Shown: one piece after another, positions 445-44,259 of the stretch | Position numbering within the stretch: position 1 is the stretch's first letter | Layout of the letters: every line of letters starts with the position of its first letter | DNA from: Candidatus Woesearchaeota archaeon | GTDB taxonomy: Archaea; Nanobdellota; Nanobdellia; Woesearchaeales; GCA-2686295 | DNA: 64,000 nt | Direction of reading: 5' to 3' | Assembly: GCA_016784125.1 (NCBI GenBank) | Contig: JADHVI010000001.1 | Location: 78,417-142,416 of the forward strand | Position numbers and translations under genes: made by a program | The notes under the pieces: generated by a model | Database searches by the model: none | What the model was told of the DNA's origin: nothing | What the model saw: the letters and a program-made list of their open reading frames with translations, nothing else

Positions 445-1491
445 TCAATTCTTCCATCTTAGAATTCCAGCTATTCCTGTTAGTGAATCCAGGTTTTTTT
501 CTGCTTCTTCAGAACTAATAATGTGAACTTTACCATCCATTTGTTCACATGAGATCATCATATTTTCAAGTTCCTTATATGTTCCTTTCTCTTTAGAACT
601 TCGCAATAGTTTTTGACTTACTAGTAATTCTTCAACTGCGCCTAATTGAATTTTTTCTTTTGTTTCTTTGATTCCATAGCATGCTTGTTCTTTTGATATA
701 TATTCCAATAGTTTATCTACGGCTTTAATCTCTTGTATACTTCTGTTTTGTTCAAGCACTTTTCTAAGCTCATCTCGTTTTAGCACTTCGTTTATTGCCC
801 GTTCATTTGCCTGAGATACTGTCGCACTTACACTCTTCTTCTTAATCTCATCTGGAGTAACTTTCAAGAGTTCTTCTTTCCAGAAACCTGGACTTGCCAA
901 GATGATGTGGTCTGTTTGATTTGTTTTCTGAAATTCAGTTATTTTTTCAATTATTTCTTTATAGAAACTTCCTTTTGAAACATGTTTTTCTTCTTTTTTT
1001 TGAACATCTCCTGCCATCTTTGCAATCAGTTTGTATCCTGATCCTATGAGTTTAGCGAAATATGCCTCTTCTCTGTCAAATACAACTATCAAAATGTTTG
1101 TCGGCTGATTCTTTGTTGATTCATCAATTCTTTTTAATTGGAATTTTAACCATTGAGTCTTCTGAATTGTTATTATGGAATTATTTTCAAGGTTAAAGCT
1201 GTGATGTTCACCTCTTGGAATTTCCTCTGGTCCATCCGTAATGGTGCCAAGAACTCTTAGTGTGGCGCCTTCTGATAGTTCTATTTTTTCCACTTTTATG
1301 GCTATAAAAAACTGTTTTCTCACAACTTTTACATTTCTATCAGTATCGTCACCAATCTTTATTTTTCTCTCAGTTCTTCCTTTTATTATATCATCTACGT
1401 CAATGATCTGACTCAGAACCCAGAGATCATCTATGTTTTCTATTTTCAGAGTTAGTTCCTGCTTCTTTAATGCTTTTTTTATGATTTTCAT
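445..1491 (-). CDS. pelA: Pelota (Dom34-like mRNA surveillance / ribosome rescue factor)
   Basis: Translation from the internal Met reads MKIIKKALKKQELTLKIENIDDLWVLSQIIDVDDIIKGRTERKIKIG, a typical Pelota N-terminus, followed by eRF1-like domains 2 and 3. I trimmed the track ORF (445..1533) to the Met at 1491. Confidence 0.9.
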   Translation of the reverse strand: MKIIKKALKKQELTLKIENIDDLWVLSQIIDVDDIIKGRTERKIKIGDDTDRNVKVVRKQFFIAIKVEKIELSEGATLRVLGTITDGPEEIPRGEHHSFNLENNSIITIQKTQWLKFQLKRIDESTKNQPTNILIVVFDREEAYFAKLIGSGYKLIAKMAGDVQKKEEKHVSKGSFYKEIIEKITEFQKTNQTDHIILASPGFWKEELLKVTPDEIKKKSVSATVSQANERAINEVLKRDELRKVLEQNRSIQEIKAVDKLLEYISKEQACYGIKETKEKIQLGAVEELLVSQKLLRSSKEKGTYKELENMMISCEQMDGKVHIISSEEAEKNLDSLTGIAGILRWKN

Positions 1492-1520
1492 ATGTTTGTC
1501 TTTTATTCTGTATATTTCTC

Positions 1521-1528
1521 TATTTAAA
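1521..1528 (-). promoter_or_regulatory. Candidate archaeal TATA box for pelota
   Basis: TTTAAATA on the minus strand sits about 29 nt upstream of the proposed pelota ATG (1491). This spacing fits a leaderless or short-leader archaeal transcript. Confidence 0.3.
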
Positions 1529-1537
1529 ACCAATAAA

Positions 1538-1545
1538 TTTATATA
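1538..1545 (+). promoter_or_regulatory. Candidate archaeal TATA box for the envelope cluster (gene at 1568)
   Basis: TTTATATA ends 22 nt before the ATG at 1568, which matches archaeal TATA-to-TSS spacing with a leaderless mRNA. It is divergent from the pelota promoter. Confidence 0.35.
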
Positions 1546-1567: not shown

Positions 1568-2758
1568 ATGAGAAAAAGAGGAGCTGGTGGAAATAGCGCA
1601 AGTGGAGCAGCCATCTTAATAGTTATTGTTGCGGTTATTTTTCTATTATACATATTAATGCTTCCTCCTGAAGATAGAGCAGATTTATTAGGTGAAGACA
1701 ATCGCTCCAATTCTGAGGAAATAACTTCTTCAGGTTTTAATAAGACTCTGTTAAAGGAGAATATTGGTCGTTTGGATTATTTGCGATCTGATTATCGGGA
1801 AAGAGACTTACCATCCTTTAGAATTTATTCACAAAAGGAAGGAACAATTCTTAAGACTCTAAATTCAGTTTATGTAAAGAATGCGATTGGTGATAAGAAA
1901 TATTATAATGTAACTTTTGATATTGCTGAAAGATTAACTTCTGAAGTTAAATTATCTTTTAATGTTAAGCGTGCTCGCGGAAGATTAGAATTATATTTAA
2001 ATGGTGTTGAAATATTTAATGGTGAGCTAGGTAAAGGTTCTCCTAGTCCAATACCACTTCCTTCTGAGGCATTAGATAGCGAAAACACTTTGGTTTTCAA
2101 AGTTTCAAGTCCCGGATTTGCTTTTTGGAGCACTAATGAATATTTGCTAGAAGATGTTATGATTACAGGAGATGTTTTAGATGTGTCTAATAGTAAAAGC
2201 AGACAATTTTTCTATCTCTCAGATATTGAAGTTTTGAATCTTGATGAGATAAGACTTAAGTTTTATCCTGACTGTGATTCAAGATCTGTTGGTCCATTAA
2301 TCATTAATTTAAATGGTGAAGAGGCCTTCTTTGGAGTTGCTGATTGTGGAGTTTATAGAACAGTAACTCTTGATAAAAATAGCATATATGAAGATAAGAA
2401 TGAATTAGAATTTATTGCCACGGAAGGCTCTTACTTGATTGACAGGGTTTCTATTAGAACCGAACTTGAAGAACTTGTCTATCCTGTTTACTACTTTGAT
2501 CTTGATGAAGACTTATTTGATGGTGATGACTTTGATGACAGTTACAATGTTACTTTGCGCTTGAGATTTGTTAACCATGATGATAAAAGATTGGAATACT
2601 TAATTAATGGTAGAAGAAAGCAAATAAATACTGATGAGATTGAATATACCACTTTACTTAATGATTATGTTCTTCCAGAAGCCAATTCATTGGAATTGGT
2701 ACCAAAAAGCATAGTTGACATTTCGGTGCTGAGAGTTACATTGGACGAAGAAGAATAA
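1568..2758 (+). CDS. Signal-anchored extracytoplasmic protein with three internal beta-sandwich-like repeats (envelope cluster gene 1)
   Basis: I trimmed the track ORF 1433..2758 to the ATG at 1568, giving MRKRGAGGNSASGAAILIVIVAVIFLLYILMLPPED: a basic N-terminus followed by one hydrophobic helix. Three repeats carry a shared LNG core: VKLSFNVKRARGRLELYLNGVEIFNG, IRLKFYPDCDSRSVGPLIINLNGEEAFFG and VTLRLRFVNHDDKRLEYLINGRRKQIN. I recognise no family. Confidence 0.6.
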   Translation: MRKRGAGGNSASGAAILIVIVAVIFLLYILMLPPEDRADLLGEDNRSNSEEITSSGFNKTLLKENIGRLDYLRSDYRERDLPSFRIYSQKEGTILKTLNSVYVKNAIGDKKYYNVTFDIAERLTSEVKLSFNVKRARGRLELYLNGVEIFNGELGKGSPSPIPLPSEALDSENTLVFKVSSPGFAFWSTNEYLLEDVMITGDVLDVSNSKSRQFFYLSDIEVLNLDEIRLKFYPDCDSRSVGPLIINLNGEEAFFGVADCGVYRTVTLDKNSIYEDKNELEFIATEGSYLIDRVSIRTELEELVYPVYYFDLDEDLFDGDDFDDSYNVTLRLRFVNHDDKRLEYLINGRRKQINTDEIEYTTLLNDYVLPEANSLELVPKSIVDISVLRVTLDEEE

Positions 2759-2759
2759 A

Positions 2760-4322
2760 ATGGATGGTTCTGACATCAAAGATGGGATTGATAAAGTAAA
2801 TAATTATCTTAAGGGTAAATGGGATTCTTTAACTAAAACTGCCGAGCAACCTGAAGATTTTCGAAAAGGTCAAGTTCTATTTTTAATGCTTCTTGGGGCA
2901 ATTATTTATTGGGTTGATGTTTTCTTTCTAGGTGGTGCAACTGCTTCGTTCATGCCAGGTAAGATAACTGTTTTTCTTTATGCTCTTTTAACTCTAATGG
3001 CAGTCGTTGTATTCAGAGCAGGAATGCAGCAAATAATGGAGTTCATCATTGTTTCCATTGTTGCTATGGTCTGGCCTCGGACAATATCTATGGTTGTTGG
3101 TGGTATGGGTGGGTTGGATAACTTATCTTTTGTTTCTAATACACAGTTTATATCAATATTTCTTACAGCAGTAGTTTTAGTAACTCCGATATGGACTTAC
3201 TATTTTCTATATGTAAGTCGTCTTTCAACTGATCAAGTTCGTGGGTGGGGTAGAAAATGGGCAATCTTATGTTTTTCAATTGCAATTCTCATAACAATCG
3301 TTATGGGCGGCATTGGTACTTTTGCAGGCCCCGCAGATCTTGACTTGGGAGAGGGAGTTAATTATCTAAAAGTTTATTTCTGGGAATATCCGAAAGAAAT
3401 TGGAGTATATCTTTTCACAATTCCAGGAACCTTAACTTCATATCTTAATGAAACTATGGGTTTGAATGAATTTACTGGGAAGGTGGATCAAAATAAAGAT
3501 GGACCATTAGGAGTCTATCTTGAAGACCTATCACCTGCCGAGACTATATTTTATGAATATAATCCTGTTGTAATATGGGCATCTCTAAAAGGAAAGAGTT
3601 TTGAAGGGTACATCCAAGTTAATAATCGTTGTTACACTAAGAAGGATAAGGAAATTGAATTCGGAGAAATATTTCCTCAAACAGTTGATTTATTTTATGA
3701 TGATTCTTCAAGTTTAGAGTGTATATTTGAAGAAGGTTTAGAAGATGGTTCATATGTTGTTACGTTTATTTCTAGCTTTGAGTTTCCAACATGGGGATAT
3801 GTTACTTACACATATGTAGATAAAGATTTGAGACTGGCGTATTATTCTCAGAAAAAGAATATTAATACAGAACTTAATATTCCTACTAAAGTAGAACCGA
3901 TTTATACGAGCGGTCCTGCTTCAATTGAAGCAAACTTAGTTGATTTACCAGTTAGCATATACTCTGATAGAGATTGGCATCCTTCATTTGGTGTCACATT
4001 AGCCAATCTTTGGCCTCAAGGAGAAATTGTTTCTATTAAAAGTTTAGACATGATTATTCCAAATGATCTTTCGCTTGAAAGATGCATACCGACATTCATA
4101 TCTAAAGAACCAAGTGATGAGGGATATAATACCTATTCGTTTAAACTTCAAAGCCATCAAAATTTATTCTCAACAGTAACTTGTCCGTCAGTTAAAATAA
4201 ATGATCCTGAGGCTTTTTTAGGAGACAATTTGAAAGTTTCAAGAACCTTCGCGATAAAAGCGAGTTATATTTATACTTTAGAAAAATCAGTTCATATTAA
4301 AGTTGAAAAGATAGGGAAATGA
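2760..4322 (+). CDS. Polytopic membrane protein (about 5-6 TM helices) with a roughly 300-aa extracytoplasmic C-terminal domain (envelope cluster gene 2)
   Basis: Starts 1 nt after the stop of gene 1. Hydrophobic segments include VLFLMLLGAIIYWVDVFFLGG, ITVFLYALLTLMAVVVF, FIIVSIVAMVW, ISIFLTAVVLVTPIWTYYFLY and WAILCFSIAILITIVMGGIG. By manual alignment, the C-terminal part looks like a divergent, cysteine-poor copy of the module in genes 3-5 (GPLGVYLEDL..., IYTSGPASIEANLV, FAIKASYIYTLEKSVHIKVEK). Confidence 0.6.
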   Translation: MDGSDIKDGIDKVNNYLKGKWDSLTKTAEQPEDFRKGQVLFLMLLGAIIYWVDVFFLGGATASFMPGKITVFLYALLTLMAVVVFRAGMQQIMEFIIVSIVAMVWPRTISMVVGGMGGLDNLSFVSNTQFISIFLTAVVLVTPIWTYYFLYVSRLSTDQVRGWGRKWAILCFSIAILITIVMGGIGTFAGPADLDLGEGVNYLKVYFWEYPKEIGVYLFTIPGTLTSYLNETMGLNEFTGKVDQNKDGPLGVYLEDLSPAETIFYEYNPVVIWASLKGKSFEGYIQVNNRCYTKKDKEIEFGEIFPQTVDLFYDDSSSLECIFEEGLEDGSYVVTFISSFEFPTWGYVTYTYVDKDLRLAYYSQKKNINTELNIPTKVEPIYTSGPASIEANLVDLPVSIYSDRDWHPSFGVTLANLWPQGEIVSIKSLDMIIPNDLSLERCIPTFISKEPSDEGYNTYSFKLQSHQNLFSTVTCPSVKINDPEAFLGDNLKVSRTFAIKASYIYTLEKSVHIKVEKIGK

Positions 4323-5545
4323 TGAAAAAAATTTATTTAGTTTTAGTATTATTTGTTTTACTTACTGCCTGTAATAGAACTTTTACGCCGCAAGAAACTA
4401 ATTATTATACGGGAACAAAAGGGGTTGAGTTGGAGTTTGTGGGTTATAGTCCACCAAATAATGTGTATGAACAAACAACTTTTCCTTTGGCAATTTTTGT
4501 TTCTAATGAGGGTGCATTTTCTTTGAATGGTTCGCCTTTTAAAGGATTAATAACTTATTCTTATGACCCATTTTATTTAGCCGAAATAAATGGTACCGCG
4601 GAATCAGAATTTGAAACTATAATAATAAATGGAAAATCAGATGGTTTTCCTCAAGGTGATCTTCAGACAAAACTATTACCTATGTTTACCGTTAAACCTG
4701 TTTTAGGCCAAAGAGAATCCCCTACAACCGAATTATTTGTTTCAGCTTGTTATCCTTATAATACTAAGCTCGTTGATGAGGTGTGTATTGATACTTCTTC
4801 TTTGACAAATGATATGAGGTCAAATGTTTGTAAAGCAGAAAATAAAGTTTATTCGGGTCAAGGCGCACCCGTTGCAATTACAGAAGTTCATGTACAGATG
4901 AATCACATGCTTAATAAGATTAGACCTTCATTATTAATTAAAATAAAAAATGTTGGTTCGGGAACGGTGTTGGCGCCTGTTTCTAGTTCAGAACAAGCCA
5001 GAGCTTGTGACATTCAAAAAGACAAAAGGGGCGATTGGAATACTGTTAAGATAAAAGCATTGCTTTCTAATGAGCAACTTACTTGTGTACCTGAAGTAGT
5101 TCATCTTCGTCAAGGTGAAGGGTCTGCTCGTTGTTTTATGGAATCTGGCGGGTTTGGAGCTGCTTTGAATTATTATGCTATTATGATAGTAGAATTAGAT
5201 TATGTTTATTTGACCAGTGTTTCAAAAGAAATAACTATTGAGCGTACAGAACTTCCTGATATAGAATATTTATCTTCAAATAATTGTGAATATTGGGAAA
5301 CAGAAATTGATGGGATTTGCAAGAATAACTGCGAGATATGTTCGGAAGGTTCATCACTTTCATTTTGTAATTCACAAATAGTAGATCAGAACTGGTCCTG
5401 TGATTGCGGGCCTATCGAATGTACAACTATTATTGGCTCACGTAAACTAGGTGGCATCGTAGATGGAATTGAAGTAAAAAGTGGAAATTGTATATTTGGT
5501 CAGAGCTTTTGTGCGCCTGGAAAGTACTGTTGTATAAAACAATAA
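4319..5545 (+). CDS. Lipobox surface protein, paralog A; two CARDB-like beta-sandwich segments plus a Cys-rich C-terminal tail (envelope cluster gene 3)
   Basis: ATGA overlap with gene 2. Signal peptide plus lipobox: MMKKIYLVLVLFVLLTAC. Shared family motifs are CYPYNTKLVDEVCID, SGQGAPVAITEVHV, LLIKIKNVGSGTV, LTCVPEV, ARC and IVELDYVY. The last ~90 aa carry about 14 Cys (NNCEYWETEIDGICKNNCEICSEG...CAPGKYCCIKQ). Confidence 0.65.
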   Translation: MMKKIYLVLVLFVLLTACNRTFTPQETNYYTGTKGVELEFVGYSPPNNVYEQTTFPLAIFVSNEGAFSLNGSPFKGLITYSYDPFYLAEINGTAESEFETIIINGKSDGFPQGDLQTKLLPMFTVKPVLGQRESPTTELFVSACYPYNTKLVDEVCIDTSSLTNDMRSNVCKAENKVYSGQGAPVAITEVHVQMNHMLNKIRPSLLIKIKNVGSGTVLAPVSSSEQARACDIQKDKRGDWNTVKIKALLSNEQLTCVPEVVHLRQGEGSARCFMESGGFGAALNYYAIMIVELDYVYLTSVSKEITIERTELPDIEYLSSNNCEYWETEIDGICKNNCEICSEGSSLSFCNSQIVDQNWSCDCGPIECTTIIGSRKLGGIVDGIEVKSGNCIFGQSFCAPGKYCCIKQ

Positions 5546-5577
5546 TTTTAAATATGGAAAGAACAAAAGGTTAACAT

Positions 5578-6945
5578 ATGAATAATAAACTATTAATCGG
5601 ATTTTTTTTGGCTTTAATATTAATATTATCATCTTGTTCGATGTCTTCTAGTGCGCCAACTGATCCAACTACAACTCATTATTATCGCGGATATGAAGGA
5701 ATTAGAATGACTATTGATCCAGGTTCTCTTCCTAGCACGTTATATTACTATGCAAATGCTCCTGATTCTTATAATGCGTTTTCTGTAGATGTAGAAGTTC
5801 ACAATGTTGGGGCTTCTTGGAGTAGAGGAGGAATATATGTTTCTGGTCATGATCCATCTTTGATATTTTTGGAGGGTGTTAATGTTCCAAAAACTAGTGG
5901 TGGTTTTTGGGAACATTGTCAAACAAGACTTTCAATGGGTGACTGGGATTGGTCTAATATTGCAGGAGTCCTAAATTGTAATTTTGGAGATCATGGAGCA
6001 TCTTTTACAGGGGATCCCAATACCGATCAAGCAATTGATGGTGTTAGCATAAACAATTTATTTGGTTTCTTTGGGGCTGGAGATGCAATTAATGATTTGT
6101 TAAGTCAATCAGAGCTGTTGTCAAGATTGGGTTTAAATGAATTGGGAAATATGGATGTAGATTTAACATGGGATGGTCAAACAGATGCTTACGCTTTTAA
6201 TTTTGACTTTACAGAATTTGGATTAAACTTAGATGTATTACATCACGGGGCGGCATTAATGATATTAATGGATTCTCTTAGTTTTGATAGATTTAATGGA
6301 AAATCTTTTTATTTGGCTGCTGATAACTATGATTATCCTGGCGGAGAATTAACTTATATTTCATTTCCTGGGTATGTTAGAGATACTTGGCCTGCTGGTT
6401 TGGATTCAACACCAGTCACATTTATGATTTCATCTTGTTATGCCTACTCAACATATGCAACACCGTTGGTATGTATAGATCCTGATCCTGCATCTCAAAA
6501 TCAAAAAGTTTGTTATCCTGGACAAGTTAGTTTAGCAGGAAGTCAAGGTGCGCCTGTTGCTGTAACGGGTGTTCATCAAGAAAGTGGTCGTTTAAGTACA
6601 ACTTTCACAATAGAAATCAGTAATGTGGGTCATGGAAAAGTTATTTATCCCGGTGATTTGGAATTATGCAGTCCTTATTACCCTGGAGCATTAACCCGAA
6701 AGAACACAGATTTAGTAATACTTGGAGATATTAGAATGTCGGGTAGTGATCAAAGACTAAGATGCACTCCTGATGATAATATTGTAAGACTTAATCCAAT
6801 GACTGGTAAGGGACAGATTATTTGTACTTATGATTATGAATATGCCACATCTAAATCTGCTTATAAAGCTCCTTTGGTAATTGAATTATGGTATGGTTAT
6901 AGTGAAGAGTTACAAAGAACAATTAACATCAAAAGGGCGCGTTAA
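5578..6945 (+). CDS. Lipobox surface protein, paralog B (envelope cluster gene 4)
   Basis: Signal peptide plus lipobox: MNNKLLIGFFLALILILSSC. Family motifs are SCYAYSTYATPLVCIDPD, GSQGAPVAVTGVHQE, FTIEISNVGHGKV, IRMSGSDQRLRCTP and VIELWYGYSEE. It carries a long insertion (about residues 100-260) relative to the paralogs. Confidence 0.65.
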   Translation: MNNKLLIGFFLALILILSSCSMSSSAPTDPTTTHYYRGYEGIRMTIDPGSLPSTLYYYANAPDSYNAFSVDVEVHNVGASWSRGGIYVSGHDPSLIFLEGVNVPKTSGGFWEHCQTRLSMGDWDWSNIAGVLNCNFGDHGASFTGDPNTDQAIDGVSINNLFGFFGAGDAINDLLSQSELLSRLGLNELGNMDVDLTWDGQTDAYAFNFDFTEFGLNLDVLHHGAALMILMDSLSFDRFNGKSFYLAADNYDYPGGELTYISFPGYVRDTWPAGLDSTPVTFMISSCYAYSTYATPLVCIDPDPASQNQKVCYPGQVSLAGSQGAPVAVTGVHQESGRLSTTFTIEISNVGHGKVIYPGDLELCSPYYPGALTRKNTDLVILGDIRMSGSDQRLRCTPDDNIVRLNPMTGKGQIICTYDYEYATSKSAYKAPLVIELWYGYSEELQRTINIKRAR

Positions 6946-7019
6946 TACTCGCCAGTAAAAAAACAAAAAGTTTTATATACTCTAAAGGGATAAAAATATT
7001 TGTTTTGGAGGTCTAAAAA

Positions 7020-7967
7020 ATGAAAAGAACATCACTTTTATTGTTGGTTTTAGCAGTATTTTTGTTAGCTTCTTGCTCTAGCGAGACTATCACATCGAAT
7101 CAAAACACTTTTTTAGGTGGAACAACAGGATTACTAGTTAATTTTGTTGAAGGAGAACCACCACTAGAAGTGACTGATGGTAATGCCACACCATTTACTG
7201 TGAGTATTAAATTAGAAAATCGAGGCGAAACAGAAATTGCAGCAGACGATGTCTTGATATCCCTAAGAGGAATTGATCCTATTTCCTTTAGTGTTACATT
7301 GGATGAGATTATTAATCAACACCCTACTTCAATGATTCTAAAGAATGATTTAAATCCTGATAATGGAGAAAAAATTGATTCTCCACCGGTTTACTTCACA
7401 TTTCCTATGATGAATTATCAAGGGTCTTTGGCAGGAAATGATGATTTTCCTTTTGTCGTAGATGTTTGTTATAAATATCGGACTTTGGCAACATCAAAAT
7501 TATGTGTGAAGGAAAATACTATGGATTCAACTCATAACGATGTTTGTACAGTTTCTGAAAAGAAATCTGTTCAAAATTCTGGTGCACCAATACAAATAGT
7601 TAGCTTTGATGAATCATCAGCAGGTCAAGATGCAGTTGCTTTCTCTGTTAAGATTAAGGACATGGGTAGTGGACTACTTGCACAACAAGGAACAATGTGC
7701 AATGATCATGCAGGAACAAAAAATATTGTGAAACTAACTGTTGATACTGGTATTTCAGGTTTAACCTGCGGGGGTCTTTCTAATCCTTCAACAACAGGAA
7801 CTGCTTACTCAGGTGACATTAGAATGAGTACAGGAGAAGTATCTGTAAGATGTACTCAACAGTTATCTCCAGCAGATAAATCTGACAAAGTAATGATTGT
7901 TGATATGTTTATAGATTATGACTACCAAGAATCAAAAGCGACATCTGTGCTAGTTAAGCACATTTAA
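7020..7967 (+). CDS. Lipobox surface protein, paralog C (envelope cluster gene 5)
   Basis: GGAGGT Shine-Dalgarno 8 nt upstream. Signal peptide plus lipobox: MKRTSLLLLVLAVFLLASC. Family motifs are VCYKYRTLATSKLCVKE, QNSGAPIQIVSFDE, FSVKIKDMGSGLL, IRMSTGEVSVRCTQ and DMFIDYDYQE. This is the shortest member and looks like the minimal two-domain architecture. Confidence 0.65.
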   Translation: MKRTSLLLLVLAVFLLASCSSETITSNQNTFLGGTTGLLVNFVEGEPPLEVTDGNATPFTVSIKLENRGETEIAADDVLISLRGIDPISFSVTLDEIINQHPTSMILKNDLNPDNGEKIDSPPVYFTFPMMNYQGSLAGNDDFPFVVDVCYKYRTLATSKLCVKENTMDSTHNDVCTVSEKKSVQNSGAPIQIVSFDESSAGQDAVAFSVKIKDMGSGLLAQQGTMCNDHAGTKNIVKLTVDTGISGLTCGGLSNPSTTGTAYSGDIRMSTGEVSVRCTQQLSPADKSDKVMIVDMFIDYDYQESKATSVLVKHI

Positions 7968-7981
7968 TTTTTTTCTTTTTT
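7968..7981 (+). terminator. Oligo-T terminator after the envelope cluster
   Basis: TTTTTTTCTTTTTT begins immediately after the TAA at 7965..7967. Archaeal RNA polymerase terminates at oligo-T tracts. Confidence 0.45.
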
Positions 7982-7985
7982 CCCT

Positions 7986-8939
7986 TTAACTATTTATTAG
8001 AACAAATTTACTTAGAAGAGCCTCTAATTGTATGAATTCATCACTGCCTTCAACCATTCTAAACTCTGCTTCACCACACTCTTTTACCATTTCAAGTTTT
8101 TTCTTGTCTTCCGTTTCTAATGACCAGATTTCTTTTTGAATTTGTTTAATAATATCTAATCCTGACAATCCATATTCAAGCATTGTTTTCAGAAGCTCAT
8201 TCTTTGCACTCACAAAATCTTTTTTTACACATGACTCCAAGACGCTTTTGACTTCTTTTGGCCTTGCTACACTAGCCATTTCAAAGATTAAATTTTCATC
8301 TATCTTTTTGGTAATTGCTGCAGATGATTGCAAAATATTTTCTACTTTTCTGCAATCGCCATTGGAAATCTCATAGAGTGCTTCTTTTGCTTTTGAATCA
8401 ATAGTAAGAGATTCATCTTTAGCAATTTTATCCATTATGTAGAACATATCTTCTTTAGCTAACGGTTTAAATCTGAATACAGTACATCTGGATTGTATAG
8501 GATCAATTATCTTGGATGAGTAATTACACGATAGGATGAACCTGCATGTTTGAGTATAATTCTCCATGGTTCTCCTCAGAGCTTGTTGAGCTTCTTTAGT
8601 CAAAGCGTCACATTCATCTAGATAAATTATTTTGAATGGAACATTTCCTATGGCTTTAGTTCTAGCAAAGTCTTTTACTTTAACTCTAATAACATCTATT
8701 CCTCTCTCATCAGATGCATTTAGTTCAAGAAAGTTCTCTCGCCAAGAATCTTTAAACATTTGTTTTGCAACAACAAGCGAAAGAGTGGTTTTACCAGTTC
8801 CTGCTGGGCCTGCAAACATTAAATGAGGCATGTTCTGTTGTTTAACAAACGCTTCTGTTCGTTTAACAATTTCTTGTTGGCCTTTTATCTCTGAGAATGT
8901 TTGAGGTCTATACTTTTCAGTCCATATAGCTGCTTCCAT
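7986..8939 (-). CDS. rfcS: Replication factor C small subunit
   Basis: WTEKYRPQTFSEIKGQQEIV..., Walker A GPAGTGKTT, DEAD-like LDECD, SRC motif (IQSRC). 317 aa with no intein. Confidence 0.95.
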   Translation of the reverse strand: MEAAIWTEKYRPQTFSEIKGQQEIVKRTEAFVKQQNMPHLMFAGPAGTGKTTLSLVVAKQMFKDSWRENFLELNASDERGIDVIRVKVKDFARTKAIGNVPFKIIYLDECDALTKEAQQALRRTMENYTQTCRFILSCNYSSKIIDPIQSRCTVFRFKPLAKEDMFYIMDKIAKDESLTIDSKAKEALYEISNGDCRKVENILQSSAAITKKIDENLIFEMASVARPKEVKSVLESCVKKDFVSAKNELLKTMLEYGLSGLDIIKQIQKEIWSLETEDKKKLEMVKECGEAEFRMVEGSDEFIQLEALLSKFVLINS

Positions 8940-8974: not shown

Positions 8975-9238
8975 TTAAACAATATCTTCTTCAGCGACAA
9001 CCAGAAAGTCCCCTATAGCTATAACTGCGCTGAACGGAATAAGTATGTTGCCTTCTTTTGTTTTTTCTAGTTCCAATTTTTCAGTATATGATGTCGGATT
9101 TGATAGAACCATGTGTATAAGTTCGCCTGAGCTTGTTTCAAAGACAATGTCTCCTACTTCACCAAATTTCTTCCCAGTTTTAGAAACGACAGTTTTACCT
9201 AAAAGTTGTTTTGAAAATTTTTTCTCCTCTTCTGCCAT
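8975..9238 (-). CDS. PRC-barrel domain protein
   Basis: 87 aa. LLGKTVVSKTGKKFGEVGDIVFETSSGELIHMVL...ILIPFSAVIAIGDFLVV fits the PRC-barrel pattern of small archaeal proteins. Confidence 0.6.
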   Translation of the reverse strand: MAEEEKKFSKQLLGKTVVSKTGKKFGEVGDIVFETSSGELIHMVLSNPTSYTEKLELEKTKEGNILIPFSAVIAIGDFLVVAEEDIV

Positions 9239-9381
9239 TTTATCACCCTAAAGTTAAAGATTTTATAACATTGTTGAGGGACAACAAGTATTTAAAACTT
9301 TTGTTTTTAGATAATTATTGTCGAATATTATGCGTGCGTTTTCACAAAAGATTTATAAAAAAACTTTCATGATTTATCTTT

Positions 9382-9759
9382 ATGACTTCGTTACTTGCGT
9401 GTTTATCAACTGGTAAGGGTTCTTGGGCTCATCTTTTGGAAGTTATAAGAGGTACTGAATGGGATAATGTTATTTTAGTAACAAACGAGTTTGGAAAAGA
9501 ACGTTTTAATGAACCAAATGTTCAGCTTATAACTCTTGATTTGAACCTTTCACCTGATATTCTTTCAGATTCTATTGTTGCTGCTCTTCACGGTAAGAAT
9601 CTTGGAATGGAAGTGGCCATAAATATGTCTTCAGGTACAGGAAATGAGCATATGGCTCTTTTATCTGCGGTTTTAAAACTTGGTTTAGGAATGAGATTAG
9701 TGTTTTCTAAAAATGGAACCGTAGAAGAGTTAAAATTGTTCAATGCTTCTTTTGACTAG
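9382..9759 (+). CDS. Small Rossmann-like protein, possible minimal CARF-like ligand-binding domain (hypothetical)
   Basis: 125 aa. An N-terminal strand-loop LLACLSTGKGSW and a later NMSSGTGNEHMALLSA resemble the CARF signature (N-x-T-G-G-T-K-x-M). No effector domain and no cas genes are present. Confidence 0.25.
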   Translation: MTSLLACLSTGKGSWAHLLEVIRGTEWDNVILVTNEFGKERFNEPNVQLITLDLNLSPDILSDSIVAALHGKNLGMEVAINMSSGTGNEHMALLSAVLKLGLGMRLVFSKNGTVEELKLFNASFD

Positions 9760-10333
9760 AATAAACTCTATAGCCTGATTTTATTCCTAATTCTTCTTTG
9801 TTACCAAAAACAGAAAGCATTTTTTCAGATAAACTTTTCCCACCTTTGTTGTGTCGGGCCACAATTTGTAATGATCCTCCTAGAGTAATGTGCTCAAAGC
9901 TTTCTTCTATTAGCCTAAAACAAACACTTTTTCCAGCCACTTGAGGAGGATTTAGTAATATTAAATCAAATTTATCTTTTATTTTTTGGAAACCATCGGA
10001 TTGAAAAACTTTTCCTTGGATTTTGTTAAGCTTCAAATTTTTCCTTGCCAAAAAAGCTGCTCTTTTATTAACATCACTAAAGAAGACATCACAATTTGAA
10101 AACATTTTATGTACATAAATGCCAACGATTCCAATTCCACATCCCAAATCCAAAATTTTGCTGTTGTTATTTACTTTCATGTATTTGAGAAGAACAGAAG
10201 TGCCTTTATCCAATCTTTTTTTTGAGAAAACTCCTGAACCAGAATAAAGAGGTATAGATATATTTCCAATACATATTTCAATCTCTTGAATGTTTAAAGG
10301 TGCTGTTTGTTCTTCAGAATAATAATGTTCCAT
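9740..10333 (-). CDS. Class I SAM-dependent methyltransferase, MTS/RsmC-like (MJ0882-like)
   Basis: 197 aa. Motif I is ILDLGCGIGIVG and motif IV is LLNPPQVAG. Size and layout match the small archaeal MJ0882-type methyltransferases. Confidence 0.7.
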   Translation of the reverse strand: MEHYYSEEQTAPLNIQEIEICIGNISIPLYSGSGVFSKKRLDKGTSVLLKYMKVNNNSKILDLGCGIGIVGIYVHKMFSNCDVFFSDVNKRAAFLARKNLKLNKIQGKVFQSDGFQKIKDKFDLILLNPPQVAGKSVCFRLIEESFEHITLGGSLQIVARHNKGGKSLSEKMLSVFGNKEELGIKSGYRVYSSQKKH

Positions 10334-10334
10334 T

Positions 10335-10952
10335 TTACATTACTTTGATGAGTGAGTATGAAAACGCATCAGCAACTCTAACGGCATCTCCTTCTTTGTA
10401 TTCAAGGATTATACATCTATTATAACCATAAACAGTGTTTCTATTACTTTTCTTGAAAGATATTACAACTACTTCTTGACTGGCATTATCACAAGTTGCA
10501 TATGGTAAACCTTCAACTAAATCATTTACTGCACTAACTGTTTTAATATTGAGCACTTCATATCTTTCACCAGTTATCTTGGCAATTTCTATTCCTGCAA
10601 TTGCCATGTCTGAACTGCTATCTCCTGGTAAAGAGATTATAATTTTTTTAGGTCTGTAAACAAGTATTATGTTTTCCACATCTTCTTCTACATTGATGTC
10701 TTCTAATTCATTTGGGTGAAAATAATATGGTATGGTGTAAGGTACTTTGTTGAGTTCAATCTTTGTAAACCATAATTCGCTACTCTGGTCATAATAGAAT
10801 TGGAATTCATGATAATTATTAGCATTAACTTGACTTTCAACTTTGTGCTTACTGTAATAAATAGATCCTATAAGAACCACGCATATCACAATGACTATAA
10901 CAATAAACCAAACTTTGCTTTCATTGCTTTTCTTACTGCTCTTCTTCATCAT
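10335..10952 (-). CDS. N-terminally anchored extracytoplasmic protein, tandem paralog 2 (hypothetical)
   Basis: TM helix VWFIVIVIVICVVLIGSIYY. Shares YHEFQF, WFTKI, FHPNEL, ATCDNASQ and RCIIL with the upstream paralog. Confidence 0.55.
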   Translation of the reverse strand: MMKKSSKKSNESKVWFIVIVIVICVVLIGSIYYSKHKVESQVNANNYHEFQFYYDQSSELWFTKIELNKVPYTIPYYFHPNELEDINVEEDVENIILVYRPKKIIISLPGDSSSDMAIAGIEIAKITGERYEVLNIKTVSAVNDLVEGLPYATCDNASQEVVVISFKKSNRNTVYGYNRCIILEYKEGDAVRVADAFSYSLIKVM

Positions 10953-11529
10953 TCATAACACCATAGTGCACATATAGAATTAAATCTCTGAATCTAAAGA
11001 AGTCTTCTGTGTATCCATTCATTATGATACACCCATTTTCTTCTCTTATGCTTGTTTCGGTTGAAATATTAAAATATATTACAGGCATAAACTGTGTGGC
11101 ATTATCACAAGTAATTTTTGGAAGAAAGTATGTATCTGATTCTTTTGTTATGCCATCAATGACAAAAGAACTTATAGTAATCTGAAGATCTCTTCTTACA
11201 GAATCAATATACAATAAATTTTGTAATTCACTATCAGGATCAAAAGTAAGATACATGACAGGAGACAATAATTTTTCATTTAAAGAGTTTGGATGTTCTA
11301 AATACAGTAATTCTTGTGGTAATGACTGAAAGCCAATTCTCTGTTCACCAATCTTGGTTACAAAGACATTTTCAGTTCTTGTGAATTTGAAGCCGTTATA
11401 TTCCCATTTCTCACTACCTCTATTACCAACAATGATGCCCAGCATACTGACAACCATTAGGAGGACTAGTACTCCGCCCATCAAAAACTTCTTTTTTCGG
11501 GCCTTTCGAGAGTCTATTCTTTTAAGCAT
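10933..11529 (-). CDS. N-terminally anchored extracytoplasmic protein, tandem paralog 1 (hypothetical)
   Basis: TM helix FLMGGVLVLLMVVSMLGIIV. Motifs YNGFKF, FVTKI, EHPNSL, ITCDNATQ and GCIIM. Overlaps the downstream paralog by 20 nt. Confidence 0.55.
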   Translation of the reverse strand: MLKRIDSRKARKKKFLMGGVLVLLMVVSMLGIIVGNRGSEKWEYNGFKFTRTENVFVTKIGEQRIGFQSLPQELLYLEHPNSLNEKLLSPVMYLTFDPDSELQNLLYIDSVRRDLQITISSFVIDGITKESDTYFLPKITCDNATQFMPVIYFNISTETSIREENGCIIMNGYTEDFFRFRDLILYVHYGVMNDEEEQ

Positions 11530-26916: not shown

Positions 26917-28389
26917 ATGAAGAGATCAGTCGCCGGAATTTTATTGTTAATAGTATTTCTAATAACTTTTCTATCTAGAGCTGGAATCTCTATGCAAACA
27001 GACATTTTTTCTTATGAGGCATATTTTGAACTAAGACAAATTGAGAACATTAATGAAAATGGTTCGCCTCTTTTTGAAGATCCACTAAGCTATGGTGGCA
27101 GAAGTCATCTTTTCCCCCCAATATTTTATTATTTGATTGCACTATTCGGATTTTTAGGTACTTCGCTCGCAGCCAAGTTGATTCCTAATCTCTTGTCATC
27201 ATTCATCATCGTAACGGTTTATCTGATGTCGTTTCATATAACTAAAAATAGACTCATATCTATTATTACTGCTTTCTTTTCAGGGTTCATACCTATTTTC
27301 TTTGTAACAGTGAATGACATATCTGTTTATTCACTTGTAATACTATTGATGGTTTCAATCACTTATTTCATGATGAAAATTAATAATCGTTTTCATCTTA
27401 ATATGGCAATATTGTTTATGATTGTGCTGATATTATCTCATTCATCGGCTTTCTTACTCATACTCGGACTTCTATTGTATCTCCTTTTGTTGAGAGTTGA
27501 ATCTTTGGAAGTAAATAAAAGAGAGCTCGAATTAATTCTCTTCGCGAGCTTTTTTGTTATATGGTTTAATTTTTTATTATATAAAAACGCGTTCCTTGTT
27601 CATGGTCCTTTGATTTTTTGGCAAAATATTCCTCTTCAAATATTAACTAATTTCTTTTTCGAATTAAACTTAATTCAAGTTATATACTATATAGGCATAA
27701 TACCTGTTGTTTTAGGTATATATGCTATCTACTATGTCTTGTTCAAGGAAAAGAAAAGAAGTGTTTTTCTTTTGGTGAGCATGGCTTTAATAGTTCTATT
27801 ATTGTTGTGGCTAAAAACCATCCCCTTTGAAGTCGGCCTCATCTTCTTAAGCATAGTTTTGACAGTATTGTCTGGCTATTCCATGAAATTAATATATTCA
27901 TATTTTAAGAAAACAAAATTTTCCAGGTCTGGCAAATGGGTTTTGCTTGGAATATTTATACTGTTTTGTTTATCATCAGTTATTCCTAGTGTCAATTTGG
28001 CTTTGAATTCTGTTGAAAGTGTACCTAGTGATTATGAACTTGAAGCTTTGGATTGGTTGCTTAACAACACAGACAATTCTTCAATCATCCTGGCTCGCGT
28101 TGAAGAAGGTTATATGATTAATCATTTTGCCAAAAGAAAAACAGTCATAGATGAAGATTTTCTGTTGATAACTGATGCTCAACAAAGATATGAAGATGTT
28201 CAATCTGTTTTTTCTTTGCATTTAAAAACCGAAGCGTTGAGACGATTAATGAAGTATGACGTTGATTATATCTATTTTTCCGGGAAGTTTGGTGATGAAG
28301 AAAAATTGCATTATGTTGATGAAGATTGTTTTGACATGGTTTTTAATAAATCCGTTAAGATATACAAAGTTGGGTGTACTATACAATGA
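26917..28389 (+). CDS. GT-C-like polytopic membrane protein (putative lipid-linked-sugar glycosyltransferase), paralog 1
   Basis: 490 aa with about 11-13 TM helices. The first loop has acidic residues (SYEAYFELRQIEN...FEDPLSYGG). The C-terminal soluble domain ends DYIYFSGKFGD...VKIYKV. Overall layout is ArnT/PMT-like, and there is no WWDYG motif. Confidence 0.45.
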   Translation: MKRSVAGILLLIVFLITFLSRAGISMQTDIFSYEAYFELRQIENINENGSPLFEDPLSYGGRSHLFPPIFYYLIALFGFLGTSLAAKLIPNLLSSFIIVTVYLMSFHITKNRLISIITAFFSGFIPIFFVTVNDISVYSLVILLMVSITYFMMKINNRFHLNMAILFMIVLILSHSSAFLLILGLLLYLLLLRVESLEVNKRELELILFASFFVIWFNFLLYKNAFLVHGPLIFWQNIPLQILTNFFFELNLIQVIYYIGIIPVVLGIYAIYYVLFKEKKRSVFLLVSMALIVLLLLWLKTIPFEVGLIFLSIVLTVLSGYSMKLIYSYFKKTKFSRSGKWVLLGIFILFCLSSVIPSVNLALNSVESVPSDYELEALDWLLNNTDNSSIILARVEEGYMINHFAKRKTVIDEDFLLITDAQQRYEDVQSVFSLHLKTEALRRLMKYDVDYIYFSGKFGDEEKLHYVDEDCFDMVFNKSVKIYKVGCTIQ

Positions 28390-33649: not shown

Positions 33650-34099
33650 ATGAAATGTCCTTTTTGTGAATTTGCGGATACTCGAGTTGTAGAAACTCGG
33701 GAAACAACTGAAGATGTAACTAGAAGAAGGCGCGAATGCATGAACTGCAAAAAAAGGTTTACAACCTATGAGCGTGTTGAATTACATCCTTTAATAATCA
33801 TAAAGAAAGCAGGTGTTCGAGAAGCTTTTGACAGACAAAAAGTCAAATCAGGAGTTTTAAGATCTTGTGAGAAAAGACCTGTTTCTATAGATGAAATTGA
33901 AAAGTTAATTGACAAGATTGAATCTGAATTAAGAAAAGCCGACAAAGCAGAAGTATCTAGCAAAGTTGTTGGTGATCTTGCCATGAGGTATCTCAAAAAA
34001 CTGGATAAGATTGCGTATATAAGGTTTGCAAGTGTTTATCTGGAATTCGAGGATGTCGAATTATTTCGAGAAGAAGCTAAAAAATTGATGAAGCAATGA
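33650..34099 (+). CDS. nrdR: Transcriptional repressor NrdR (zinc ribbon + ATP-cone)
   Basis: MKCPFCEFADTRVVETRE...RRRRECMNCKKRFTTYERVE, followed by an ATP-cone (IIKKAGVREAFDRQKV...). Confidence 0.92.
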   Translation: MKCPFCEFADTRVVETRETTEDVTRRRRECMNCKKRFTTYERVELHPLIIIKKAGVREAFDRQKVKSGVLRSCEKRPVSIDEIEKLIDKIESELRKADKAEVSSKVVGDLAMRYLKKLDKIAYIRFASVYLEFEDVELFREEAKKLMKQ

Positions 34100-34107
34100 G
34101 GTGTAAG

Positions 34108-44237: not shown

Positions 44238-44259
44238 AAGACTGAAAAACCGCACTTTA

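Follow-up and report, generated by a model that had tools for sequence, protein, structure and literature searches.

A conserved five-gene set of predicted membrane-anchored surface proteins between pelota and RFC in Woesearchaeota

The stretch of DNA analysed here, referred to as the window, comprises 64 kb from an uncultured DPANN archaeon (Woesearchaeota) and carries five plus-strand genes, g1 to g5, at positions 1568-7967 (Table 1). The original prediction had described these genes, a TATA-like element ahead of the first, an oligo-T tract behind the last and the flanking pelota and RFC genes; the junctions are exactly as given there. The oligo-T tract sits in the 18 nt that separate g5 from the convergent RFC gene. 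The longest open reading frame of g1 begins at 1433, and a start at 1568 is supported by the N-termini of homologues, the NCBI annotation (a 396-aa "hypothetical protein") and the position of the TATA-like box.

Table 1. Features of the five-gene locus and its flanks, in window coordinates
Feature	Position	Strand	Remark
pelota gene	445-1533	-	flank
TATA-like box TTTATATA	1538-1545	+	30 nt 5' of g1 ATG
g1, 396 aa, signal-anchored	1568-2758	+	
g2, 520 aa, polytopic membrane protein	2760-4322	+	1-nt gap after g1
g3, 408 aa, lipoprotein	4319-5545	+	ATGA overlap with g2 stop
TATA-like box TTTAAATA	5547-5554	+	31 nt 5' of g4; candidate internal promoter
g4, 455 aa, lipoprotein	5578-6945	+	32-nt gap after g3
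TATA-like box TTTATATA	6972-6979	+	48 nt 5' of g5; candidate g5 promoter
Shine-Dalgarno-like GGAGGT	7007-7012	+	between g5 TATA-like box and g5
g5, 315 aa, lipoprotein	7020-7967	+	74-nt gap after g4
Oligo-T tract T7 C T6	7968-7981	+	directly 3' of g5 stop; archaeal terminator-like
RFC small subunit gene	7986-8939	-	flank

All five products are predicted envelope proteins, as had been proposed, with one signal anchor and repeats in g1, five transmembrane (TM) helices in g2 and lipoboxes in g3, g4 and g5. None of them matched Pfam, NCBIfam, PADLOC, PHROGs or PDB sequences at curated threshold, and none carries a signature of S-layer, ABC solute-binding, ATPase, pilin or secretin proteins, in line with the earlier statement that no signature of that kind is visible. 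Foldseek searches with AlphaFold models returned generic tandem beta-sandwich (Ig-like) matches only, at TM-scores of about 0.2 (0.13-0.27), and sequons for N-glycosylation show no enrichment (0-10 per 1000 aa, background 5.4). Judged from these searches, the set of five membrane-anchored surface proteins is undescribed.

The g1 protein has a single N-terminal TM helix (aa 14-32, nt 1607-1663), a conserved juxtamembrane motif, LYILFLPP..R..LL, and three beta-rich repeats of ~98 aa (about aa 117-214, 215-312 and 313-396), which are detected by hhalign as a self-hit (probability 97, E 9e-11) and carry invariant "NG" and "N.L.F" motifs in every copy. Matches to BcsB (3/23), BetaGal_ABD2 (3/23) and Glyco_hydro_2_N (2/23) were obtained among 23 g1-family members, all under the curated Pfam thresholds (best E 6e-4), which makes jelly rolls like those of galactose-binding domains the probable fold of the repeats. 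With BcsB and GH2 sugar-binding proteins g1 has in common a single-pass topology and repeated "NG ... N.L.F" jelly-roll-like modules; unlike BcsB, it has no glycosyltransferase partner, its matches stay below threshold and its repeat is shorter than typical domains. No relationship between g1 and g2-g5 was detected.

In g2, a short cytoplasmic helix precedes the five hydrophobic TM helices (aa 39-186, nt 2874-3317), which are poorly conserved and contain no conserved polar residues except a partial HxxD, and these are followed by an ectodomain of ~280 aa with a beta-rich conserved core (aa 237-518, nt 3468-4313), four invariant cysteines (C291, C321, C442 and C475) and the motif YFTGxVExN...PLGVYLED. 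The AF2 pLDDT is about 80 in the ectodomain and about 60 in the TM part. It had been claimed that four of the five proteins share one module, and this is certain for g3, g4 and g5, which are paralogues (hhalign probability 100, E 1e-40 to 1e-63), but weak for g2, whose ectodomain aligns collinearly with the C-terminal half of g3/g4/g5 at E 0.0015 and probability 17%. The Cys and Y.Y motifs match in that alignment, and the g2 ectodomain and the lipoproteins share their Foldseek neighbours and are similar in the predicted two-sandwich arrangement of strands, all of which suggests, below the usual level of significance, that the two may be homologous.

As in the AliA/AliB lipoproteins of Haloferax volcanii (PMC12462473), canonical lipoboxes follow a Sec-type h-region in g3 (LTAC18, LLTAC), g4 (SSSC20, LSSC) and g5 (LASC19, LLASC); a strict lipobox is present in 169/190 family members, and the archaeal lipidation enzyme AliA has been reported in DPANN (PMC12462473), so that lipidation is predicted here. 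Characterised archaeal lipoproteins are mostly solute-binding or redox proteins, whereas the g3-g5 family has no such domain; it comprises 2,717 clusters at 50% identity, matches no Pfam family, and none of the members checked has a function assigned at source; one member is fused to three LamG/ConA-like lectin domains. A two-beta-sandwich core is common to all three proteins. The g5 protein (AF2 pLDDT 94.3) is the minimal, ancestral-size member with two tandem beta-sandwich domains, the first of which contains a CARDB-like motif, "FxVxVKLENxGE", and some family members give weak CARDB HMM matches. Cys pairs are invariant, and the six conserved cysteines of g5 could form up to three disulfides. 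To this core g3 adds a C-terminal tail that is rich in Cys and specific to its lineage (aa 311-408, nt 5249-5542; the whole protein has 19 Cys) and is weakly similar to the C-terminal extension of one g2 orthologue (L023), and g4 an acidic insertion of 137 aa (aa 101-237, nt 5878-6288) restricted to the window's clade. In Foldseek searches, g5 and the g2 ectodomain both come closest to the MSCRAMM adhesins SdrG/ClfB, integrin alpha-chain leg domains, RbmA and AglB C-terminal domains, but against these Ig-like/CARDB proteins the TM-score is 0.13-0.27, the rmsd >12 A and the identity about 10% or less, and sortase, LPXTG and dock-lock-latch features are absent; the resemblance is one of common fold, not of family membership. 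The lipid-anchored ectodomains had been described as diversified, and their lipid-anchor signals hold, but they are not freely diversified, since they form three ancient, position-specific orthogroups (consistency in 51 loci: position 5, 98%; position 4, 89%; position 3, 74%) whose conservation among close relatives is about that of pelota.

The notion of one co-transcribed unit is weakened by the comparison of 21 orthologous loci. A TATA-like octamer lies at -60..-16 of g1 in 11/21 loci, against a coding background of 1.2%, ahead of the fourth gene in 14/21 and ahead of the fifth in 9/21, and none is conserved ahead of g2 or g3; the g2-g3 junction is overlapping or of <=20 nt in 76% of the 21 loci. 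Because conserved TATA boxes precede g4 and g5, three promoters are favoured over one operon, the predicted transcription units being g1-g2-g3, g4 and g5, and a single operon is unlikely. The first box implies a leaderless or near-leaderless g1-g2-g3 transcript, as far as promoter-like sequence can predict it.

The order pelota'/g1 g2 L L L/RFC' (L, lipoprotein gene) was found again in about 115 further loci, made up of 34 species-level genomes and 80 metagenome contigs of Woesearchaeota/Nanoarchaeia, down to about 27% identity and with no contradicting arrangement among them. Five-gene order is kept despite different flanks in two loci (L026 and L040), and some genomes (L027, L029 and L035) keep just two lipoprotein genes, beside RFC, without adjacent g1 or g2. 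The arrangement is not due to chance, because all five genes have conserved homologues in fixed order in these loci; loss of order in relatives and a confident family match had been named in the original prediction as counting against it, and the order is kept while no such match emerged. The evolutionary rates of g1 and g5 among close relatives are about as low as that of pelota. The closest orthologous cluster (L001/L008) belongs to Lake A "Bin 69", which is flagged as a peptidoglycan degrader in the Lake A source. The cluster is old, and its five genes are best read as a vertically inherited module, fixed in the chromosome of Woesearchaeales-type DPANN archaea, whose products are predicted to assemble at the cell surface.

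Murein hydrolase domains occur at the extracellular C-terminus, after the core, in roughly 16/68 g2 orthologues, and in four families the domains exceed the Pfam threshold or keep their motifs intact: M23, SLT/GH23, GH73 and Amidase_2. Peptidase_M23 is found on g2 of L021 (64.7 bits, HxxxD and HxH intact) and L030 (55.6 bits), SLT/GH23 with ES and G[LIM]MQ motifs on that of L036, L037, L039, L021, L043, L048, L067/68, L080 and L094, GH73 glucosaminidase on that of L028 (35.2 bits) and Amidase_2 on that of L048 (104.5 bits), with a sub-threshold M15_4 match on L025. Two enzymes are combined in L021 (TM helices, M23 and SLT) and in L048 (SLT-like and Amidase_2), and PDB matches of the M23 domain include phage Gp16 and an internal protein. 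Repeated recruitment is indicated because several unrelated hydrolase families occupy one position. The window g2 ends at the core and has no such domain, nor has any of the 11 g2 orthologues of its clade, and no murein hydrolase was found within the 64-kb window.

The reading favoured here, with a probability of roughly 0.45, is that the products form a heteromeric surface platform, anchored in the membrane, for binding the foreign cell walls of bacteria; we infer the physical assembly, the lipidation, glycan binding by g1 and the bacterial target. The g2 protein would form the membrane platform, with its TM helices, a cytoplasmic tail that varies and is often a coiled coil, and an ectodomain stabilised by disulfides. 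Against this ectodomain, to which they may be distantly related, g3 (putatively coupled to g2 in translation), g4 and g5, as three non-redundant archaeol-anchored two-beta-sandwich subunits, would probably pack into a heteromeric assembly standing on the membrane. From its one-helix anchor g1 may display its three jelly-roll, carbohydrate-binding-like repeats for glycan binding, and the Cys-rich g3 tail and the g4 insertion would be clade-specific elaborations. Such a platform would act where the archaeon meets foreign murein-containing (bacterial) walls, which would explain why g2 was repeatedly extended with different peptidoglycan hydrolases in many lineages; these would open the bacterial sacculus locally, and in the window's clade the wall may be cut by separately encoded enzymes or the module may serve binding and attachment only. 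If so, the module may be a contact point between tiny DPANN archaea and bacteria. The host-contact role suggested earlier gains from the hydrolase domains of other lineages, but the window cluster itself has none. Large extracellular murein-like transglycosylase proteins of Woese-/Pacearchaeota (2021, PMC8204110), like the GH23 genes of "vampiristic" Woesearchaeota (Vigneron et al. 2022, PMC9723730), have been read as attachment to or attack on bacteria (see also PMC12352652). These proteins, from the same lineages, place extracellular SLT/GH23 on large membrane/surface proteins, and SLT domains of that kind are on the g2 orthologues of L036, L037, L039, L067 and L094; they are single proteins found via their catalytic domain, whereas here a non-catalytic core of five TM helices and an ectodomain is conserved together with four partner genes, and the hydrolase is optional, of several families and absent from the window g2.

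The hydrolase domains of g2 could also be opportunistic cargo on a convenient anchor and not a clue to core function. This is the sense of a rather unlikely alternative in which the module is an intrinsic envelope scaffold, either a housekeeping membrane-proximal (pseudo-periplasmic) layer or an S-layer support, with hydrolases, such as secreted antibacterial enzymes, as secondary cargo. Strict vertical inheritance, a core-genome position between pelota and RFC, pelota-like conservation and fixed rather than hypervariable orthogroups fit it, as do the anchoring, not secretion, of all five proteins and the lack of a hydrolase in about 75% of g2 orthologues, the window's included. Against it, it is difficult to see how several different murein hydrolase families could have been gained repeatedly and independently at one position unless there were a functional tie to bacterial walls, S-layer signatures and sequon enrichment are absent, and S-layer genes are annotated separately, among the top transcripts in Woesearchaeota transcriptomes (PMC11606122). 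A nutrient-capture role, in which free murein/glycan debris would be bound and, with hydrolases, degraded to amino sugars and peptides for a reduced cell without stable cell-cell contact, agrees with the hydrolase fusions, the carbohydrate-binding-like g1 matches and the cell-wall recycling proposed for Woesearchaeota (PMC9723730). It is nevertheless improbable, since none of the loci has a transporter, an ABC component or a solute-binding protein within or next to the cluster, enzymes tethered by a polytopic anchor are better suited to act on contact than to scavenge dispersed polymer, and the window cluster has no enzyme.

PrgK, TraG-pIP501, CwlT and phage tail/tape-measure lysins resemble g2 orthologues in having an N-terminal anchor or scaffold followed by swappable M23/SLT/amidase/glucosaminidase modules for a local murein breach. 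A trans-envelope conduit following the logic of Gram-positive type IV secretion/conjugation, where an anchored multi-domain hydrolase (PrgK, TraG, CwlT type; M23/SLT/CHAP) breaches the wall so that a channel can pass, might be read from the g2 architectures of L021 and L048, which resemble VirB1-type conjugation hydrolases. It is already disfavoured and very improbable: no VirB4/VirD4-type ATPase, VirB6/VirB8-like protein, relaxase or NTPase lies in or beside the ~115 loci, the g2 TM domain is poorly conserved, and, unlike those conjugation and phage systems, which have ATPase, channel or virion genes, this is a non-mobile core chromosomal locus of a producer without murein, with a window g2 devoid of catalytic modules. 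Equally hard to credit is that the module is the synthesis/turnover scaffold of a murein-like sacculus in the archaeon itself; all that speaks for it is that orthologues carry murein hydrolase domains. Archaea other than Methanobacteria and Methanopyri are not known to build murein-type walls, and SLT/GH73 enzymes do not cut pseudomurein. Moreover, no Mur-type genes were seen near the cluster, and pseudomurein producers are reported to be almost never the source of archaeal peptidoglycan hydrolases (PMC12352652).

Against the favoured reading also stand the genomes that keep just two lipoprotein genes beside RFC and the slow evolution of g1 and g5, the latter being atypical of arms-race host-recognition proteins and more like that of housekeeping envelope parts.

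The cluster consists of five genes, g1 to g5, which code for a signal-anchored repeat protein (g1), a membrane protein with five transmembrane (TM) helices (g2) and three lipobox proteins (g3, g4 and g5); their lengths are 315-520 aa, and all five products carry the NCBI name 'hypothetical protein'. The five plus-strand ORFs of the original prediction, with their gaps and the ATGA overlap, were reproduced exactly, as were the two flanking minus-strand genes, and both the TATA-like element placed ahead of g1 and the oligo-T tract placed after g5 were found again (see the table). The longest possible ORF of g1 begins at 1433; the start was set at 1568, since this position fits all homologue N-termini, the NCBI annotation and the TATA-like box. 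The g2 product is 100% identical to ISS09_00490 of a Candidatus Woesearchaeota MAG. Base composition is even across the cluster and its flanks, and a mobile-element reading was rejected on this homogeneity together with the fixed chromosomal position.

Features of the cluster in the window, and hydrolase domains found on g2 orthologues in numbered orthologous loci from related genomes and metagenomes
Feature	Locus	Position (nt)	Strand	Remarks
g1	window	1568-2758	+	ORF; 396 aa (NCBI annotation)
g2	window	2760-4322	+	ORF; 1-nt gap after g1
g3	window	4319-5545	+	ORF; ATGA overlap with g2
g4	window	5578-6945	+	ORF; 32-nt gap after g3
g5	window	7020-7967	+	ORF; 74-nt gap after g4
pelota	window	445-1533	-	flank of cluster
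RFC small subunit	window	7986-8939	-	flank of cluster
TATA-like box TTTATATA	window	1538-1545	+	30 nt upstream of g1 start at 1568
T7-C-T6 tract	window	7968-7981	+	directly 3' of g5
Peptidase_M23	L021			64.7 bits; HxxxD/HxH intact (WHNGVD ... HLHF); best PDB matches M23 peptidases at 1e-10
Peptidase_M23	L030			55.6 bits; ligands degenerate
LytM-like, degenerate	L019/L020			read from the sequence by eye, without profile-search confirmation
SLT/GH23	L036, L037, L039			about 18 bits, just under gathering; ES and G[IV]MQ[IV]N canonical
Second SLT	L021			together with the M23 domain
GH73 glucosaminidase	L028			35.2 bits, above gathering score
Peptidase_M15_4	L025			sub-threshold
Amidase_2	L048			104.5 bits; SLT-like domain in same protein
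Further M23- or SLT-like extensions	L043, L045, L067/68, L080, L094			metagenome set

The order pelota'-g1-g2-L-L-L-RFC'-PRC' (L, lipoprotein gene) is constant in Woesearchaeota and Nanoarchaeia MAGs, down to 27-35% identity. Loci were gathered from look-ups of distant homologues and from a scan of GTDB species representatives (34 loci), while a separate, independent scan of metagenome contigs seeded with g1 supplied 80 more, all compatible with the same order; the five-gene arrangement proposed from a single stretch of DNA is kept across both sets. Every resolved locus has a large polytopic ORF where g2 is expected, its homology being confirmed by profile searches, and the cluster stays intact despite different flanks in L026 and L040. 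Other arrangements are g1-g2 with two lipoprotein genes (L040 and L041) and, in L027, L029 and L035 (about 9000-11000), two lipoprotein genes beside RFC with unrelated genes upstream and no adjacent g1 or g2. Across 51 three-lipoprotein loci, cross-locus best hits are consistent with position in 98% (position 5), 89% (position 4) and 74% (position 3) of cases, which indicates that the triplication is ancient and that the copies are non-redundant. Comparison of close relatives places the conservation of g1 and g5 near that of pelota (63-65% versus 65-67% identity), with g2 the fastest-evolving gene of the cluster; the closest orthologous cluster (L001/L008) has 63% identity to the window in g1 and g5. 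The RFC small-subunit gene of L029 (10946-13201, minus strand) encodes 751 aa instead of the usual 318 aa or so, which suggests an intein or other large insertion. Ten loci carrying the pelota/g1-g5/RFC block, which is of the Woesearchaeal kind, were deposited as 'uncultured Methanosarcinales archaeon' (L013, L014, L027, L029, L030, L032, L033, L035, L037 and L039), a label that is probably a placeholder or an error in those MAG records.

In 76% of 21 complete loci the g2-g3 junction is overlapping or at most 20 nt, and the remaining junctions have medians of 47-57 nt. When a TATA-like octamer was scored at -60 to -16 in 21 loci (coding background, 1.2% of windows), it was found upstream of g1 in 11, g2 in 2, g3 in none, g4 in 14 and g5 in 9; the boxes of the window lie at -30 (g1), -31 (g4) and -48 (g5), with a GGAGGT downstream of the last. 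Junction spacing and box distribution together predict three transcription units, g1-g2-g3, g4 and g5, and so a co-located regulon rather than one strict operon. A sigma-70 promoter scan stayed at or below shuffle expectation, and its bacterial consensus is irrelevant for an archaeon.

The g2 protein starts with a short helix on the cytoplasmic side; five hydrophobic helices (aa 39-186) come next, and then a beta-rich ectodomain of roughly 280 aa with four invariant cysteines and a YFTGxVExN...PLGVYLED motif. The TM domain is weakly conserved, its sole conserved polar features being a partial HxxD and P.W..Y; on this scarcity of conserved polar residues a catalytic or transport role was rejected, and the domain looks more like an anchor or scaffold. 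The AlphaFold2 (AF2) model of g2 has a pLDDT of 68 overall and of about 80 in the ectodomain, where its strand pattern is the same as in the g5 model. Collinearity between the g2 ectodomain profile and the C-terminal half of the lipoprotein profile was detected at an E-value of 0.0015 and a probability of 17%, with coincident GP..I, N.G.G, Cys and Y.Y motifs. The proposal that four of the five proteins share one module therefore stands for g3, g4 and g5, which are unambiguous paralogues (hhalign probability 100), and is only suggestive for g2. Cytoplasmic N-terminal tails of g2 orthologues are K/E/A-rich and of very variable length (N-terminal 100-500 aa in, for example, L004:3406-5895, L025:5003-7654 and L037:4347-7724), with weak coiled-coil-type Pfam matches (Enkurin, GAS, Filament); the tail measures only about 38 aa in the window. 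It may link g2 to a cytoplasmic partner.

By the prokaryotic lipobox criterion, [LVI][ASTVI][GAS]C ending an N-terminal signal peptide, lipid attachment is predicted for g3, g4 and g5, at LTAC18, SSC20 and ASC19 respectively, and the strict motif occurs in 169/190 members of the g3-g5 family, the remainder being mostly FGC, YGC or QQC. AliA has been reported in DPANN (PMC12462473). With 315 aa, g5 is of the ancestral size of the family, to which g3 adds a 98-aa Cys-rich tail (aa 311-408, nt 5249-5542) and g4 a 137-aa insertion, both confined to the clade of the window. In the g5 model (AF2, pLDDT 94.3), two beta-sandwich domains stand in tandem, and a long hairpin ends each of them. Counted at 50% identity, the g5 family extends to 2,717 clusters at E<=1e-3, 1,999 of them at <=1e-10 (HMMER, profile against 1.84 billion representative proteins); the members scanned match no Pfam family above threshold, and their source names, where checked, are 'hypothetical protein'. 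Fusions to LamG/ConA-like lectin domains or to an NPCBM-associated domain occur in a few members, and CARDB was matched in 6 of 37 members, below gathering score (best E 0.0026). Cys-rich modules with no Pfam match (C..DPC...C.W; terminal ...YCC..Q) are found repeatedly in orthologues, where they separate the g2 core from the hydrolase domains, with C-terminal examples on g2 in L020, L023, L037, L039, L060, L061 and L004, and the g3 tail of the window is a module of the same sort. The similarity between this tail and the g2 extensions is weak and driven by cysteines, and counts as a hint only. Such modules may be small disulfide-knotted binding units moving between g2 and g3.

The g1 protein is anchored by a single TM helix at its N-terminus (aa 14-32), after which comes a conserved LYILFLPP..R..LL motif. 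Its three repeats of about 98 aa were recognised with hhalign (aa 117-302 against 215-396, probability 97, E about 1e-10) and each contain invariant NG and N.L.F motifs. Pfam matches of the g1 family are all sub-threshold and all to galactose-binding-like jelly rolls: BetaGal_ABD2 (3 members, 6e-4), Glyco_hydro_2_N (GH2_N; 2 members, 6e-4) and BcsB (3 members, 2.5e-3). Class III signal peptides of pilins have the motif [KR][GA][ALIFQMVED][ILMVTAS]x3, which the g1 N-terminus, RKRGAGGNSASGAAIL..., does not fit by inspection.

When all members of the g2 family were scanned singly against Pfam, the longer orthologues were found to run past the ectodomain core into peptidoglycan-hydrolase domains of different families (see the table). 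These occur in about 16 of about 68 g2 orthologues, within full g1-g2-L-L-L loci, and their position, always C-terminal to the ectodomain, implies that they are extracellular. For Peptidase M23 the criterion was HxxxD and HxH zinc ligands with PF01551 above 28.7 bits, and the motif is degenerate also in L045. For SLT/GH23 it was a catalytic Glu in E-S, a G-[LIV]-M-Q motif and a PF01464 match (gathering score 21.3 bits); L021, L043, L048, L067, L080 and L094 present a picture similar to that of L036, L037 and L039. The window g2 has no M23 or SLT/GH23 domain in Pfam, none of the 11 g2 orthologues in its clade has a C-terminal extension, and searches of the 64-kb window with the orthologue domains as queries gave no hydrolase elsewhere.

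Single-gene observations of murein hydrolases in these archaea have been published. Castelle 2021 (PMC8204110) reports a family (fam00969) of large, extracellular proteins of murein-like transglycosylase type that is specific to Woese- and Pacearchaeota, GH23 genes are recorded in 'vampiristic' Woesearchaeota (PMC9723730), and peptidoglycan hydrolases are prominent in Nanoarchaeota (PMC12352652). Two of the orthologous loci, L001/L008, lie in the Lake A co-assembly 3300033064, isolate bin.69, a MAG flagged as a peptidoglycan degrader by Vigneron et al. (PMC9723730). As the g2 of bin.69 is 'naked', ending at the ectodomain core, its GH23 gene must sit elsewhere in the genome.

The view that the cluster proteins belong to no characterised family was borne out, since Pfam and NCBIfam scans of g1-g5 gave no match above threshold, PADLOC gave none either, so that membership of an anti-phage defence system was not supported, PHROG matches were only at signal-peptide level or at E>0.01, and PDB sequence searches (profiles of the g5 and g1 families; g3 and g4 singly) were empty; none of the five has a counterpart among the curated profiles or solved structures searched. 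Foldseek searches of PDB with g5 and g2 returned only generic tandem Ig-like or beta-sandwich proteins (integrin alpha legs, MSCRAMM adhesins, transglutaminase barrels, RbmA and AglB C-terminal domains) at TM scores of about 0.13-0.27 and identities of about 10% or less, and a viral fusogen or capsid origin of g5 was dropped after a BFVD fold search gave nothing specific. S-layer proteins are usually large, abundant, sequon-rich glycoproteins; no S-layer family was matched by g1-g5 at E<=1 in Pfam or NCBIfam, and an S-layer glycoprotein reading was rejected on the absence of enrichment in N-glycosylation sequon density. ABC solute-binding lipoproteins were set aside on the lack of a family match, the all-beta AF2 model and the absence of ABC genes in or beside the cluster, and type IV filaments (archaeal TFF) on the lack of ATPase or platform genes and of a class III-like N-terminus in g1. 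A literature search found no paper describing the cluster or its families, and we know of no system that combines a polytopic platform with a repeat protein, a trio of lipoprotein paralogues and murein hydrolases that are optional and swappable. The folds are probably common ones, Ig-like sandwiches and jelly rolls; we regard the architecture as new, and infer its mechanism only from gene fusions and context.

SLT, GH73 and Amidase_2 domains act on MurNAc-containing glycan, and to our knowledge no murein synthesis is known in Woesearchaeota-type archaea. That at least four murein-cleaving folds, unrelated to one another, were recruited to a single scaffold position, repeatedly and independently, points to a structure that meets peptidoglycan, and for organisms with no known murein of their own, contact with bacterial walls is the simplest reading. 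In the joint form of this reading, to which we give a probability of roughly 45%, g2 and the three lipoproteins would form a heteromeric membrane-tethered platform, g1 would add glycan binding, and the platform would act where bacterial cell walls are met, with hydrolases either carried on g2 or encoded separately; the published single-gene observations fit such contact. The main rival is a housekeeping envelope scaffold that merely anchors cargo enzymes. In its favour, the cluster evolves slowly and sits in the core genome, and most g2 orthologues have no hydrolase; set beside the independent recruitment of murein-cleaving folds, we regard it as less likely than contact with bacterial walls. 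Three other explanations appear less likely still: scavenging of murein debris, remodelling of the archaeon's own wall, and a T4SS-like conduit. For type IV secretion or conjugation, a hydrolase is the only feature present, and in orthologues only; VirB1-type conjugation systems need the VirB4 and VirD4 ATPases and VirB6/VirB8-like proteins, whereas none of these, nor any other NTPase, adjoins the cluster in any locus.

A bolder version of the bacterial-contact reading, which we advance tentatively and with some doubt, is that the cluster might be the core of an unrecognised archaeal organelle engaging bacteria, a lipid- and helix-anchored heteromeric platform across Woesearchaeales-type Nanoarchaeota that would bind murein or glycan and, in many lineages, cut the sacculus. 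If true, a large part of a very abundant uncultured order would live or prey on bacteria, not archaea, and the genes mediating the contact would be identified. Few uncultured archaea are as widespread as Woesearchaeota and Pacearchaeota, and for most of the genes specific to these lineages no function is assigned. With its five families the cluster forms a compact and conserved surface module. The M23, SLT, GH73 and amidase domains of orthologues, whose catalytic motifs are intact, give it a biochemical handle, and the cluster is a conserved and testable candidate for the long-sought contact apparatus, tempered by the hydrolase-free copy of the window. A contact platform would provide marker genes predicting which DPANN lineages interact with bacteria, candidate proteins with which contact sites could be labelled for cryo-ET or immuno-EM, recombinant domains to pull down the walls of partner cells, and a new source of contact-dependent antibacterial enzymes. 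Even as a housekeeping scaffold, the cluster would define a large protein family that no Pfam entry matches, together with a new kind of lipoprotein assembly in archaea.

Elsewhere in the window, a glycan-biosynthesis neighbourhood (57496-60348, 47264-48757, 53051-54550 and 26917-28389, all on the plus strand) includes an AglB/STT3 oligosaccharyltransferase (950 aa, PF02516 at 1e-43), a Wzx-type polysaccharide flippase, a bifunctional PfkB-kinase/cytidylyltransferase (HldE-like) and a weak EpsG-like polytopic protein. These genes indicate that the organism makes surface glycans, and the cluster proteins are nevertheless not sequon-enriched. A fourth lipobox protein (43146-44048, minus strand; 300 aa, VLTGC) bears no relation to the g3-g5 family, and its only Pfam match, Rifin-like, is spurious. 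The sole Rfam match is a 5S rRNA gene (44124-44239, minus strand; 69.6 bits), and ARAGORN found no tRNA gene in the whole 64 kb. Two overlapping minus-strand genes (10335-10952 and 10933-11529), coding for N-terminally anchored proteins of roughly 200 aa with no Pfam match, adjoin a class I methyltransferase gene, and the pair is kept in L001 (201 and 194 aa). The ribonucleotide reductase large subunit (34096-36318, plus strand), with its N-terminal ATP-cone domain, is ordinary housekeeping.
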